Part shown: in pieces, positions 1,283-11,279 of the stretch
Layout of the letters: every line of letters begins with the position of its first letter
Position numbering within the stretch: the stretch's first letter is position 1
Source of the DNA: Candidatus Nanopusillus sp.
Lineage (GTDB): Archaea; Nanobdellota; Nanobdellia; Nanobdellales; Nanobdellaceae
Direction: 5' to 3'
Assembly: GCA_046533775.1 (NCBI GenBank)
Contig: JAWDOO010000002.1
Span: 1-32,000 of the forward strand
Length of the DNA stretch: 32,000 nt
Translations under genes and position numbers: made by a program
Notes under the pieces: model-generated
Told to the model about the DNA's origin: nothing
Seen by the model: the letters and a program-made list of their open reading frames with translations, nothing else
Databases searched by the model: none

Positions 1283-2056
1283 ATGCCAGAAATATCATTA
1301 TTAGAAAAATCTACTGATAAATATGCAGTCGATAAAGATAGGAAAATATATAAGTTAAAATTATTGATAAGAAATGTAACCCCAAATTTCTTAAATGTTT
1401 TAAGGAGAGCAATCTTAGAAGAAGTAAAAACATTAGCAATTGAAGATGTTTATATTATAGAAAATAATTCTGCAATATGGGATGAAATGCTAGCACATAG
1501 ATTGGGTTTAGTTGTATTAAATACTCCTGAAAACATTAAAGAAAATGAAGAAATAAAATTTTATTTAGAAAAAAATGAAAAAGGATATATATATGGTTCT
1601 GATTTAAAGACAGATAGAGAAGATGTATATGTAGTTTATCCAGAAACAATGATTGCATATGTTGATGAAAATCAAAAAGTAAAATTAGAAGCTGTTGCGA
1701 TACTTGGTAATGGAAAACAGCATGCAAAATTTATACCTGGACATGTTTATTATTATAGAACTGGAGAATTGAAATTAGAAGGAAAATTAGATGAAAAAGA
1801 ATTAGAAAATTTAAAATTGCTGGGAGTAGAGATAAAGAAAAATAAAATACAAATACCAAAAGAAAAAGAATATGATAGAACTTTTTTAGATGCAGTAGAA
1901 AGAGCATCAAATGAAAAAATAAAGGTTATACCAAAAGACGAATTTGTATTTATTATAGAATCATTTGGACAATATTCAGCAGAAAAATTAATACCATTGG
2001 CTATTAAAGAATTACAAAATAAATTAAACAATTTGTTAGAATTTTTATCTAAATAA
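1283..2056 (+). CDS. rpoD: DNA-directed RNA polymerase subunit D (Rpo3)
   Basis: NVTPNFLNVLRRAILEEVKTLAIEDVYIIENNSAIWDEMLAHRLGLVVL is the conserved RpoD/Rpb3/alpha-like dimerisation motif. The 257-aa length fits. A TATA-like tttataaata lies at 1254-1263, about 20-29 nt upstream of the ATG. Confidence 0.9.
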   Translation: MPEISLLEKSTDKYAVDKDRKIYKLKLLIRNVTPNFLNVLRRAILEEVKTLAIEDVYIIENNSAIWDEMLAHRLGLVVLNTPENIKENEEIKFYLEKNEKGYIYGSDLKTDREDVYVVYPETMIAYVDENQKVKLEAVAILGNGKQHAKFIPGHVYYYRTGELKLEGKLDEKELENLKLLGVEIKKNKIQIPKEKEYDRTFLDAVERASNEKIKVIPKDEFVFIIESFGQYSAEKLIPLAIKELQNKLNNLLEFLSK

Positions 2057-7520: not shown

Positions 7521-10079
7521 ATGTGGCATTCTTTACCTATTGAAGAGGTATTAAAAAAGTTAAATACATCAAATAAGGGTTTAGATGATTATGAAGCCGA
7601 AAGAAGATTAAAAATATATGGAGAAAATAAAATAATATTAGAAAAAAAGAATTTTATAGAAATTGTAATAGAATATTTAAAAAATCCTTTCTTATTATTA
7701 TTTCTTGTTGCAGATATATTATCCATTATTTTTGGTGGTATTACTGAAGGATCTGCAATAACATTATTTTTAATATTATATATAATATCAGATTATTTAC
7801 ATGATAAGAAATCTGAAAAAATAATAAAATCTCTAGAAGAAAATATAGAAAGTAATGTTTTAGTTATTAGAAATGGAAAATATAAATATGTAAAATCATC
7901 AAAAATTGTTCCAGGAGATATTATTATATTAAAATACGGACAGAGAGCTCCTGCAGATATAAGGATAATAGATTCAATTGATTTAGAAGTTGATGAAAGC
8001 TCTTTAACTGGTGAATCAGAACCTGTAAGAAAATATAATACAATATTACCAAAGGATATTCCAGTAAAAGAAAGAAAAAACATGATATTCCAGAATAGTT
8101 ATATAATAAAAGGAATTGCAATTGGTGTTGTAGTTGAAACTGGAAACAATACATATTATGGAAGTATATATAAAAATATAAGTAAACAAAGAAGGAATAA
8201 ATCTCTATTACAAGAAGAATTAGATAAATTTTCATATTATATGATAATAATTATATCAATAATTGTAATTATATCTTTTGTAATATTATTAATAAAAAAT
8301 ATACTAAATTTATACCAGCTAATAATATTTGTAATAGCTTTAGCTATTGTTGTAATACCTGAGGGATTGCCTGCAGCATTAGTATTAATATATACAATAA
8401 GCAGTCAAAAATTAGAAAGAGATAATATATATGTAAAAGATCCAAATATATTAGAAGATATTAGCAATATAGATACAGTTATTTTAGATAAAACAGGTAC
8501 AATTACATATAATGAATTAGTTATAAATAAATTTTTCTATAATGGTAAATTTTACAATGTAAAATATTATAAAGATAAGGCAGAAATAATTTATAATAAA
8601 AAAATAATAAATATAGATGAGGTAAAAGAATTTTTAATATTTTTATATAATTCAATAGAGGATTATTTAACAATAGATATAGAAAAAAATGTTGGAGATC
8701 CTATAAATTTATCAATATATAGATTGACAAAATATTTTAAGATTTCTAAATTTTTAGAAAGATATTCTGTAAATTATTTTGATCCATATAGAAAGAGATC
8801 TTCTGTAATAGTAAAATATAATGATAAGAAATTTGCAATAATAAAAGGATCTCCATCTTCCCTTCTATCTATTTCAAAATATATAATAATAAACAATAAA
8901 ATACTTAGAATAGATAAATATAGAGAAAAAATTGAAAAAATTGAAAAAGAATATGGAAAAAGAAGTTATAGAATATTGGCAATTGGTATTAAAGAAATAG
9001 AAGAAAATGAAGAACCAGAAAAAGATATAACATTCCTAGGATTATTATTTATAAAGGATAAAATAAGGAAGGGGGTTTTAAAATATATAAAAGAATTGGA
9101 AGATCTTGGTATAAATATATATATAGTAACTGGAGATAATAAAGATCATACCTTAGGAATATTGAAATTATTAAACTTAAATTATAAAATAATAGATGCA
9201 AATGAAATAAAAAAATTAAATGAAAATTATTTATACGATATATTAAAGGATTATCATGTTATAGTAAATGCAGATCCTTTAGATAAATATAGAATAGTAA
9301 AAACATTAAAAGATAAAGATCATAGAATATTATTTGTTGGGGATGGTACAAATGATGCTATAGCATTGAAGATATCAAATGTAGGTATTTCATTTTATAA
9401 TGCAACGGACATAGCAAAGGACTCTGCAAATGTTATATTAATGGATAAGGGAATAAATAATATAACAAAACTAATTATGGAAGGAAAAAGAATTATATAC
9501 AATCTAAAAGTATATATTTTAGTAATGTTATCAGAATTATTAGGAATATTTTTATTTATTTCAATTGGATTTTTTATATATAATCAGATATTTCTACAAG
9601 CTTTACAATTATTATTATTAAATTTAGTAATTGAAACAATTAATTCATTATACATGGGTTCATCAGATGTTAAAGATAAGAAAATGTTAAAAAAAATGAA
9701 GGTTAAAATATTTGATAGATCTACAAAATTAGAAATAATAAGAAATATGATATTTATTGGACTTACTTCTACAATTGTTGCTTTAGCTACAAATGATAAT
9801 AGCTATATAATAATATTATTCTTAATAGCAACACAGGGAATATTATATATACATTATGAAAAATTATTTTCATTAAATATAACAAAAACAAAGGAATATT
9901 ATATATCAATATTTCTATCTACATTTATAACATCCATATTTTTAATTGGATATTTAAGAAGAATTATTCAATTTATCATACCATCTTTAATTGATATATC
10001 AGTATTTGCGATAGTTTCATTATATTTCTTCTTTATATATTCAATAATAGAAAGGATAGAAAATGTCAGAGGTATCTGA
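7521..10079 (+). CDS. Cation-transporting P-type ATPase (P2-type features)
   Basis: The N-terminus is Cation_ATPase_N-like (LPIEEVLKKLNTSNKGLDDYEAERRLKIYGEN). It carries TGES, PEGLPA in TM4, the DKTGTIT phosphorylation site, TGDN and GDGTNDA. Confidence 0.9.
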   Translation: MWHSLPIEEVLKKLNTSNKGLDDYEAERRLKIYGENKIILEKKNFIEIVIEYLKNPFLLLFLVADILSIIFGGITEGSAITLFLILYIISDYLHDKKSEKIIKSLEENIESNVLVIRNGKYKYVKSSKIVPGDIIILKYGQRAPADIRIIDSIDLEVDESSLTGESEPVRKYNTILPKDIPVKERKNMIFQNSYIIKGIAIGVVVETGNNTYYGSIYKNISKQRRNKSLLQEELDKFSYYMIIIISIIVIISFVILLIKNILNLYQLIIFVIALAIVVIPEGLPAALVLIYTISSQKLERDNIYVKDPNILEDISNIDTVILDKTGTITYNELVINKFFYNGKFYNVKYYKDKAEIIYNKKIINIDEVKEFLIFLYNSIEDYLTIDIEKNVGDPINLSIYRLTKYFKISKFLERYSVNYFDPYRKRSSVIVKYNDKKFAIIKGSPSSLLSISKYIIINNKILRIDKYREKIEKIEKEYGKRSYRILAIGIKEIEENEEPEKDITFLGLLFIKDKIRKGVLKYIKELEDLGINIYIVTGDNKDHTLGILKLLNLNYKIIDANEIKKLNENYLYDILKDYHVIVNADPLDKYRIVKTLKDKDHRILFVGDGTNDAIALKISNVGISFYNATDIAKDSANVILMDKGINNITKLIMEGKRIIYNLKVYILVMLSELLGIFLFISIGFFIYNQIFLQALQLLLLNLVIETINSLYMGSSDVKDKKMLKKMKVKIFDRSTKLEIIRNMIFIGLTSTIVALATNDNSYIIILFLIATQGILYIHYEKLFSLNITKTKEYYISIFLSTFITSIFLIGYLRRIIQFIIPSLIDISVFAIVSLYFFFIYSIIERIENVRGI

Positions 10080-10122
10080 ATTTCATCATCTATCAGCTAA
10101 CTCTGACCTTCATCACTATTTT
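10060..10122 (-). ncRNA. C/D box sRNA (2'-O-methylation guide)
   Basis: The minus strand reads aaaata-GTGATGA(C)-aggtcagagttag-CTGA(D')-tag-ATGATGA(C')-aattcagatacct-CTGA(D)-catttt. All four boxes are canonical. There are two 13-nt guide spacers, a 3-nt D'-C' loop and a 51-nt core at 10066..10116. The flanks can form a short A-U terminal stem. The 3' part is antisense to the last 14 nt of the ATPase CDS. Confidence 0.8.
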
Positions 10123-10151
10123 TAATAATATTAATATTAAATATAATTTTT

Positions 10152-11279
10152 ATGGATCTTCCTAAAATATCAATTATATTTCCTATTTATAAAAAAAGTA
10201 AATATTTAAAAAATAATATTCAAAAAATATTAGAAGATCCCTATCCAAATGATCTAAAAGAAATAATAATATCAATAGACTCTCCAGAAGACGATTTCTT
10301 AAATAAATTAATAGAACTAAAAAATAAATATAAAAATATAACATTGATTATATCAAAAGAAAGAAGGGGAAAAGTTTCTGCAACTAATGATGCAGTAAAA
10401 ATATCTTCTGGAGAAATTTTATTTTTCTTTGATTCAGATGTTATTATCGATTATATCAATATAAAAGGGATTATTAATGAATTAAAAGAATATGATATGG
10501 TAGAATTCTATAAAGAAATAATTAAAAAAGGCTGGCTTGGTTATCTTATGTTCATAGAATTTTCTTCATATTTTGATATTATTGATCCAATATTAAATAA
10601 AACAAAAAGACCCTTATTCTTAAATGGTAGTGGATTTGCAACTAAAAAAAATGTATGGAATGATGTGGGGGGGTATTCTAAAGTATATGTAGAAGATGTA
10701 GACTTTGCTATAAAAGCTGGAAAAAAAGGATATAAATATCATATGTCAAAAAATGTAAAATTACTAATTGAACCATTAAAAGGTTTAAGGCAATGGATTG
10801 ATCAAAGGAAAAGATGGGGTTTTGGAGTAATAGAAGTAATACTAAATCATCTAGATTATATAGTAGATTTATTTATTCGCAATATGTTAACCTCTATATT
10901 GATACTTCTAATTTTATATTTACCATACATAATATGGACTTATATATATATTTACTTACCAGCCTCTTTCTTATATCAGGTTGCTATAAATATATATGAA
11001 AATCTATCTAAAAATATTAGTTTTATATACTTAATAATATTAAATCCCACATCTATTTTCAAAGTATTTTACATTCTATACCTAACTTTATTATATATAA
11101 TAACAACATCTTCTTATATATACTTATTACTTTCAATAAAAAGGAGAAAGTTTTATAATTTTCTTCCATTTATATTGTTTTCAATATTATATATACCATT
11201 ATATGAAATTATCATAATATATGATATAATATATTATGGAATATTTGAAAGGGCTCCAAAGATGAATTGGAAGGTTTAA
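10152..11279 (+). CDS. Family 2 glycosyltransferase, processive-type (D, DxD, ED, Q(R)xRW motifs) with a C-terminal multi-TM region
   Basis: The N-terminal GT-A start is ISIIFPIYKKSKYL, followed by IISIDSPED, FFFDSDVI, VYVEDVDFAIKA and QRKRWGFG. The last ~140 aa are strongly hydrophobic. Confidence 0.8.
   Translation: MDLPKISIIFPIYKKSKYLKNNIQKILEDPYPNDLKEIIISIDSPEDDFLNKLIELKNKYKNITLIISKERRGKVSATNDAVKISSGEILFFFDSDVIIDYINIKGIINELKEYDMVEFYKEIIKKGWLGYLMFIEFSSYFDIIDPILNKTKRPLFLNGSGFATKKNVWNDVGGYSKVYVEDVDFAIKAGKKGYKYHMSKNVKLLIEPLKGLRQWIDQRKRWGFGVIEVILNHLDYIVDLFIRNMLTSILILLILYLPYIIWTYIYIYLPASFLYQVAINIYENLSKNISFIYLIILNPTSIFKVFYILYLTLLYIITTSSYIYLLLSIKRRKFYNFLPFILFSILYIPLYEIIIIYDIIYYGIFERAPKMNWKV

Follow-up and report, generated by a model that had tools for sequence, protein, structure and literature searches.

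What is encoded on the minus strand where a P-type ATPase gene gives way to a GT2 glycosyltransferase gene? The two flanking genes, ATPase (7521-10079, plus strand; Pfam domains E1-E2_ATPase, Cation_ATPase_N and Hydrolase; TGA stop at 10077-10079) and glycosyltransferase (10152-11279, plus strand), lie in the window, by which we mean the whole stretch of 32,000 nucleotides that was analysed. The initial annotation had placed a box C/D sRNA here. Canonical boxes, matches to 23S rRNA, the presence of the genes for the RNP proteins, conservation, covariation and a counterpart in Nanoarchaeum equitans all substantiate this reading, and judged from its sequence the locus RNA is a true C/D box guide RNA of archaeal type, though an ordinary one. 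Our preferred interpretation, to which we assign a probability of roughly 93%, is that of a double-guide C/D sRNA which would direct methylation at two sites in 23S rRNA and whose overlap with the ATPase gene reflects genome compaction.

Box architecture and flanking sequences

The strict C/D arrangement can be read directly from the minus strand between 10116 and 10066, where the order of the boxes, their spacing and the core of 51 nt are exactly as had been described. Box C (GTGATGA, 10110-10116), which has the form RTGATGA in every orthologue, is followed by a D' guide of 13 nt (10097-10109), by box D' (CTGA, 10093-10096), which is conserved among relatives, and by a TAG loop of 3 nt (10090-10092). 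The second half consists of box C' (ATGATGA, 10083-10089), likewise conserved and degenerate (ATGAAGA) in one genome, G004, a D guide of 13 nt (10070-10082), and box D (CTGA, 10066-10069), which lies inside the ATPase reading frame on the opposite strand. The terminal boxes C (RUGAUGA) and D (CUGA) are those required for the k-turn of an archaeal C/D sRNA, and the short loop between D' and C' corresponds to its k-loop; the sequence of this loop is free to vary in relatives (TAG, TAC, TAT, AAT, TTA and others). Both spacers exceed the canonical 12 nt by one, a length that we count as conforming to a spacing of about 12 nt.

Could such a motif have arisen by chance, or be the decayed relic of an RNA that is no longer expressed? 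For the strict box pattern, the expected number of chance matches is 3.8e-5 per genome (2e-6 per window); the pattern is absent from all 60 first-order Markov genomes, while the real genome contains six; the box arrangement is non-random, far beyond chance. In favour of a chance or relic motif it can be said that we only infer expression of the sRNA, and that its Rfam matches all fall under the gathering score. However, with about 4e-5 chance matches expected per genome, with rRNA matches for both guides, and with an sRNA that has been kept, covarying with its target, across genera whose flanking proteins have diverged widely, we give this explanation next to no credence.

As for the ends of the RNA, a TATA-like, AT-rich element on the minus strand (TTATAT/TTTAAT, 10129-10146), 21-30 nt upstream of box C, is a putative box A promoter. 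Most orthologues, among them sRNA26 of N. equitans, have TTTAAA, TTATAT or TATAAA at a distance of about 21-31 nt upstream of box C, and a box A of the sequence TTTAAA at -26/-27 has been described (Randau, 2012; PMC3491384). The promoter assignment is nevertheless weak, as such elements have low specificity in a genome with a GC content of 24% (76% A+T). Directly after box D, a pyrimidine- or T-rich tract (10058-10065, minus strand) may represent a terminator or the region of the 3' end; in N. equitans sRNA26, the 3' end is located 5 nt beyond box D. The flanks, which had been described as A-U-pairable, can indeed form five A-U pairs, but relatives lack this pairing, which probably results from base composition. 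A terminal stem was rejected for this lack of conservation and in view of the unpaired ends reported by Randau (2012; PMC3491384).

Predicted targets in domain IV of 23S rRNA

Where would such an RNA act? For both guides, neither of which had initially been matched to an rRNA site, the genome's own 23S rRNA provides a target with 11 contiguous Watson-Crick pairs, above the minimum of at least 9 bp for a C/D sRNA and including a Watson-Crick pair at N+5 in each case. Positions 2-12 of the D' guide, counted from box D', pair with the loop of helix 69 (LSU local 1980-1990; about 2427-2437 on contig C8 of this genome, G000:C8), and the N+5 rule predicts Cm at local C1983, which equals E. coli C1914. 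Positions 2-12 of the D guide, counted from box D, pair with helix 68 (LSU local 1929-1939; G000:C8, about 2376-2386), with Am predicted at local A1932, about A1848 in an E. coli numbering that derives from a pairwise alignment with an indel nearby. Equally good matches were obtained with 49 of 20,000 shuffles of the D' guide (0.25%) and 22 of 20,000 for the D guide (0.11%). Within domain IV, 51 nt separate the two sites. Targets in tRNAs and 16S rRNA were rejected, the best alternatives for either guide having at least two mismatches in addition to G-U pairs.

The machinery required for guided methylation is encoded in the genome, with the genes for fibrillarin and Nop5 adjacent on contig C4 and that for L7Ae on contig C2 (bit scores of 286.9 for PF01269, 186.9 for PF01798 and 102.3 for PF01248). 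In the mechanism we envisage for this organism, a thermophilic nanoarchaeon of the family Nanopusillaceae, a mature RNA that probably spans about 10061-10118 on the minus strand would be bound by L7Ae at the k-turn formed by boxes C and D and at the k-loop formed by C' and D', and would then be joined by Nop5 and fibrillarin. Its two guides of 13 nt would pair with the nascent 23S rRNA at the two sites in domain IV, and fibrillarin would 2'-O-methylate, for each guide, the rRNA nucleotide that faces the fifth position upstream of the D-type box, yielding the predicted products at C1914 in the helix 69 loop and at about A1848 in helix 68. By holding both segments simultaneously, the RNP may also aid the folding of domain IV at high temperature.

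This last aspect might even be the main one, such that the sRNA would primarily be a chaperone of rRNA folding, with selection acting on the joint pairing to helices 68 and 69 and with methylation being secondary, or absent at one site. Both targets lie within a single domain at a short distance, chaperone roles have been proposed for double guides (Dennis et al., 2015; PMC4644070), and for either guide the duplex is conserved while the nucleotide at N+5 differs by one position among lineages: the D' guide points to U1915 instead of C1914 in G015, and the D guide to U1847 instead of A1848 in genus g3 and in N. equitans. Since the methylated nucleotide shifts in this way between genera, the precise sites are less certain than the duplexes. 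However, a Watson-Crick pair at N+5 is retained in all lineages with an intact guide, and the fibrillarin gene is intact. Furthermore, the D' guide is still present in G005, whose D guide has decayed, so the guides can be selected separately. Chaperoning is an addition to guide-directed methylation and no substitute for it, and as the main role of the sRNA we consider it possible but doubtful. A more elaborate variant, in which selection in Nanopusillaceae would act on a clamp between helix 68 and helix 69 with the methylated nucleotide being secondary, and in which the RNP could also, given the antisense position of its gene between two genes of like orientation, place a 2'-O-methyl group on the final sense codon of the ATPase transcript, appears improbable.

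Conservation and the overlap with the ATPase gene

The full sRNA is found in 11 of 12 genomes of the same genus, the twelfth having a variant, and the order of ATPase, sRNA and glycosyltransferase is kept in three further genera, that is, in at least four genera of Nanopusillaceae in all. Across these genera the flanking ATPase and GT2 proteins are only 32-45% identical, while the guides are nearly invariant: sRNA variation is limited to the loop, to guide ends that do not pair and to changes compatible with G-U pairing. In the D' guide, which is conserved across the genera, substitutions within the duplex yield G-U pairs only. In the D guide, A-U pairs are replaced by G-C pairs at two sites (about E. 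coli 1849 and 1855), the guide having changed from A to G where the 23S target has changed from U to C. Thus, with two compensatory changes and synteny in four genera, the guide tracks its target; the comparison of pairing comprised the genomes other than G004, G013, G016 and G019, whose 23S rRNA is not assembled or not found. These extremely reduced ectosymbiotic archaea accordingly keep the guide under strong purifying selection. In G019, the same guides are found in another genomic context, as two separate sRNAs.

The position of the sRNA gene opposite the end of the ATPase gene suggests a further role. The sRNA might mainly be a cis-antisense regulator of the ATPase mRNA or of a bicistronic ATPase-GT2 transcript, where perfect pairing with the 3' end or the intergenic part might affect termination, stability or downstream translation, or might direct 2'-O-methylation at the last sense codon or in the region of the stop codon. 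The overlap itself, to which the initial annotation had drawn attention, is real: it covers the last 14 nt of the ATPase reading frame, comprising box D with 10 of the 13 nt of the D guide, which thereby overlaps the final ATPase codons with the TGA stop. Moreover, both neighbouring genes are located on the opposite strand only 72 nt apart, the GT2 gene starting 35 nt from box C and diverging from the sRNA, so that transcription reading through both would yield an mRNA complementary to the sRNA over its full length, and the arrangement is retained in the four genera. The regulatory meaning that this overlap seemed to imply did not hold up, however, as its extent differs between genera. Measured by frame extension, most members of the genus have an overlap of 14 nt, and G004 and G015 one of 27 nt, while genera g2 and g3 have values between -5 and 64 nt; an overlap conserved as such was therefore not found between genera. 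What the guides covary with is 23S rRNA, and they occur in other contexts, both in G019 and in N. equitans sRNA26, which lies between NEQ455 and NEQ457. Most C/D sRNA genes of N. equitans overlap mRNA sequences (Randau, 2012; PMC3491384), making overlap the default state in such genomes. Nothing supports a conserved antisense function of the sRNA, a mainly antisense role is very unlikely, and the 14-nt overlap seems to be a side effect of the high compactness of the genome.

What, then, does the guide RNA contribute? With it, Nanopusillus-type genomes gain an unannotated but well-supported RNA gene; our literature search found no C/D sRNAs described for them. It also offers two concrete predicted sites of rRNA modification at the subunit interface, in helix 69 and helix 68. 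Our understanding of C/D RNPs is unchanged by it.

Relation to known C/D RNAs

In eukaryotes, ribose methylation of helix 69 is guided by box C/D snoRNAs such as yeast snR63 (Am2256), which has in common with the system proposed here the chemistry of the RNP and the rRNA helix. The eukaryotic helix 69 snoRNAs differ from the locus sRNA in the nucleotide they address, in their greater length and in not being symmetric double guides, and they share no sequence homology with it.

A search of the window with Rfam at gathering thresholds yielded two tRNAs only, and no family at the sRNA locus. In a permissive search, the sub-threshold matches at the locus were all to archaeal C/D families, led by sR5 with 22 bits (E 0.005) and followed by sR2 and sR3 (RF01304, RF01139 and RF01133). 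These align end to end with the locus sRNA in box positions and length, but score 17-22 bits against gathering scores of 40-42 bits, and the likeness is in the boxes only, the guides being unrelated. Membership in any of them was rejected, sR5, the best of them, scoring 22 bits when its threshold is 40.

By its targets, the locus sRNA is, as far as its sequence tells, a conventional double guide, and the region it addresses is an established hotspot of methylation in archaea. The double guides are defined by Dennis et al. (2015; PMC4644070) as a class with targets within 100 nt of each other, and the same authors describe a hotspot in helices 68, 69 and 71. In these RNAs, as proposed here, both guides are used; their targets in the helix 68-71 hotspot are separated by less than 100 nt and belong to the part of domain IV that surrounds E. 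coli A1912 at the subunit interface. The supplementary sRNA lists of that study, which cover seven species, yielded no guide pair directed to helix 69 C1914 and helix 68 A1848, and a text search of these lists for the D' guide gave no match.

The closest counterpart is C/D box sRNA26 of N. equitans, also listed as Neq sR26 and as snoscan sRNA19 (Randau, 2012; Dennis et al., 2015; PMC3491384, PMC4644070), an abundant RNA verified by RNA-seq with 55,200 reads, for which PLEXY predicts the target 23S-1955. The exact Nanopusillus guide strings are absent from the N. equitans supplement, and the match emerged only after allowing for an A/G difference that is also seen in the 23S target. N. equitans shares phylum and order with the organism studied here, and its sRNA26 is equally compact, with spacers of 13 and 14 nt and a D'-C' loop of 3 nt. 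The D guide addresses the same segment of helix 68 (GGUACCUGAAC there, GGUAUCUGAAU here) with compensating guide changes; because the D spacer is one nucleotide longer than here, N+5 falls on U1847 instead of A1848. The genomic neighbours differ, and the D' guide is directed not to the helix 69 loop but to about E. coli G1896 (segment GGCCGGUAAACG). Sequence comparison thus suggests a partial, modular relation, in which D guide and target are shared while the D' guide is different. The guide modules would then have been re-paired by family, helix 68 being combined with helix 69 in the RNA described here and with E. coli 1896 in that of N. equitans.

The sRNA gene and its genomic setting

What kind of RNA does the minus-strand element of the window specify? 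Read directly on that strand, it runs from box C (GTGATGA, 10116-10110) through a 13-nt spacer that holds the D' guide (10109-10097), box D' (CTGA, 10096-10093), a TAG D'-C' loop (10092-10090), box C' (ATGATGA, 10089-10083) and a second 13-nt spacer with the D guide (10082-10070) to box D (CTGA, 10069-10066); the box order, spacing and 51-nt core claimed in the initial annotation are thus all exact. The element sits at a gap of 72 nt that separates two genes of the plus strand, for a P-type ATPase (7521-10079; Pfam E1-E2_ATPase, Cation_ATPase_N and Hydrolase) and, on its other side, a GT2 glycosyltransferase (10152-11279). It overlaps the ATPase gene by 14 nt on the opposite strand, the D guide containing the ATPase stop TGA (10077-10079). 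Sequence, target, machinery and comparative evidence together give good support for a genuine double-guide C/D box sRNA of conventional type, with predicted expression and methylation activity.

The window corresponds to C2:1-32000 of the source genome G000 (589,867 bases in 20 contigs, 23.6% G+C). From the base composition of this genome, the strict four-box pattern is expected 3.8e-5 times per genome and 2e-6 times per window, and it was absent from 60 first-order Markov genomes. The real genome has six matches, or seven with one relaxed C' box, and a less strict scan, in which only candidates with rRNA complementarity were retained, gives eight such genes. Thus, the genome carries a small family of C/D sRNAs, of which the window sRNA is one member. 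Further canonical candidates lie outside the window, on contigs C1 (83132-83182, plus; 54291-54338, minus), C2 (40910-40957 and 78891-78939, plus; 100714-100760, minus), C3 (5774-5821 and 19985-20034, minus), C12 (6679-6726, minus) and C16 (3424-3471, minus). Most have 9-11 bp matches to 16S or 23S rRNA; examples are C1:83132, both of whose guides match 16S, and C2:100714, whose D guide matches 23S at local positions 2115-2125. An Rfam search returned no family at threshold for the window sRNA.

The protein machinery is encoded in the same genome, by adjoining genes for fibrillarin (C4:132-779) and Nop5 (C4:812-1438) and a gene for L7Ae (C2:47993-48265), all of which clear the Pfam cut-offs by a wide margin. 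G+C content is much higher in the rRNA and tRNA genes than in the genome, a contrast that usually marks a hyperthermophile when the genome is AT-rich, and C/D sRNAs are most numerous in thermophiles. Contig C8, the site of the rRNA genes, has 29.5% G+C as a whole. Most orthologues, and also Nanoarchaeum equitans sRNA26, carry a TATA-like motif (TTTAAA, TTATAT or TATAAA) some 21-31 nt upstream of box C, in agreement with the nanoarchaeal box A position (Randau, 2012; PMC3491384), and box D is followed by a pyrimidine- or T-rich tract; in a 76% A+T genome, such promoter and end signals are weak evidence. By analogy with sRNA26, which extends 2 nt beyond box C at its 5' end and 5 nt beyond box D at its 3' end (Randau, 2012), the mature window RNA would span roughly 10061-10118.

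Guide targets in 23S rRNA

The 16S and 23S genes lie on opposite strands of C8, about 6 kb apart, and therefore do not form one operon; the target search also covered 40 tRNAs called with aragorn. The initial annotation had named neither target and had proposed a search for complements in rRNA and tRNAs, and these were found for both guides in the organism's own 23S rRNA. Each guide forms 11 uninterrupted Watson-Crick pairs, with only its first and last nucleotides unpaired. The D' guide pairs with LSU local positions 1980-1990, which puts C1983 at N+5, the nucleotide opposite guide position 5 from the box and predicted site of 2'-O-methylation; the D guide pairs with 1929-1939, with A1932 at N+5. 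The two target sites are 51 nt apart. Equally long runs including position 5 arose for 49 (D') and 22 (D) of 20,000 shuffled guides. When the 23S is aligned pairwise with E. coli rrlH, C1983 corresponds to C1914 in the helix 69 loop, a secure assignment as the flanking sequence is nearly identical, and A1932 to about A1848 in helix 68, approximate because of a nearby indel.

Conservation and the ATPase overlap

The full pattern, allowing up to three mismatches, occurs in 11 of the 12 same-genus genomes. The twelfth, the complete genome G005, has a variant (locus L079, about 1480-1530, minus strand) with a 12-nt D' guide that keeps its helix 69 match and a diverged D guide that has lost its helix 68 pairing and is mismatched at N+5, perhaps a double guide on its way to becoming a single one. 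With half-patterns, the sRNA was also recovered from another three genera of this family (g2, g3 and g4), and the order ATPase, sRNA, GT2 is common to all four genera (g1-g4), with the ATPase and GT2 proteins of g2-g4 only 32-45% identical to those of the window. The carriers named by a scan of public genomes are Ca. Nanopusillus acidilobi, Ca. Nanobsidianus stetteri, Ca. Nanoclepta minutus, Nanoarchaeota archaeon YN1 and several Nanopusillaceae MAGs.

Variation is found in the D'-C' loop, at the first and last nucleotide of each guide, which are unpaired, and as substitutions compatible with pairing (A-U to G-U). In the window's close relatives, the 23S target of the D guide is GGTATCTGAAT; in G001, G010 and G015 it is GGTATCTGAAC, and in genus g3 and in N. 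equitans it is GGTACCTGAAC. The D guides carry A-to-G changes at precisely the two guide positions that face these target changes. Wherever sRNA and 23S are both assembled, guide and target of the same genome form a duplex of 10-14 bp, G-U pairs included, with a Watson-Crick pair at N+5, the G005 D guide excepted. This tracking of the target by the guide is the most telling of these results.

With the duplex retained, the N+5 nucleotide moves by one between lineages, because the duplex is separated from the D or D' box by a spacer of varying length: for the D guide from A1848 here to U1847 in g3 and N. equitans (14-nt spacer), and for the D' guide from C1914 here to U1915 in G015. The loci compared with window 10066-10116 were L035-L037 and L039. 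The shift is compatible with, and only hints at, a role for the duplexes, as a chaperone-like clamp of helices 68 and 69, that is no less important than the precise ribose to be methylated.

Does the complementarity to the ATPase mRNA, which the initial annotation had noted, reflect a conserved antisense function? The overlap itself is real. Three results argue against such a function: by frame extension, the overlap varies between lineages, with 14 nt in most of the genus, 27 nt in G004 and G015 and anything between -5 and 64 nt in g2 and g3; the guides track rRNA, not the ATPase C-terminus; and in N. equitans, overlap with mRNA sequences is found for most C/D sRNA genes (Randau, 2012). We take the overlap to be a by-product of compaction. 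The sRNA could conceivably act on the ATPase mRNA; with the D guide, N+5 would there fall on A10074, where the last Ile codon begins. At three loci of g2 and g3 (L021, L022 and L036, each in a different genome), the ATPase frame, extended from the end of the tblastn match, spans the whole sRNA with an overlap of 61-64 nt; either the ATPase C-terminus is antisense-coded to the sRNA there, or the ATPase gene really stops in a different frame.

Comparison with known C/D box sRNAs

The papers searched contained no description of C/D sRNAs of Nanopusillus. In N. equitans, the match (403502-403517; locus L073) falls inside the published sRNA26 (403464-403522), an RNA detected experimentally with 55,200 RNA-seq reads (Randau, 2012, supplementary file 2), so that the window D guide has a homologue in a demonstrated sRNA. 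The predicted targets of sRNA26 are 23S-1955 (CCGGUmACC) for D and 23S-1989 for D' (Randau, 2012), and it is also listed as NeqsR26 (Dennis et al., 2015; PMC4644070). The D' guides differ, however, that of sRNA26 being directed to about E. coli G1896 and that of the window sRNA to helix 69. In G019, from a neighbouring family, the helix 69 and helix 68 guides reside on two different sRNAs (L020 and L072). Guide modules have been re-paired from lineage to lineage. In hyperthermophilic archaea, helices 68, 69 and 71 are hotspots of 2'-O-methylation, with dense predicted sites near A1912, and sRNAs with two targets within 100 nt are termed "double guide" (Dennis et al., 2015), a description that the window sRNA fits.
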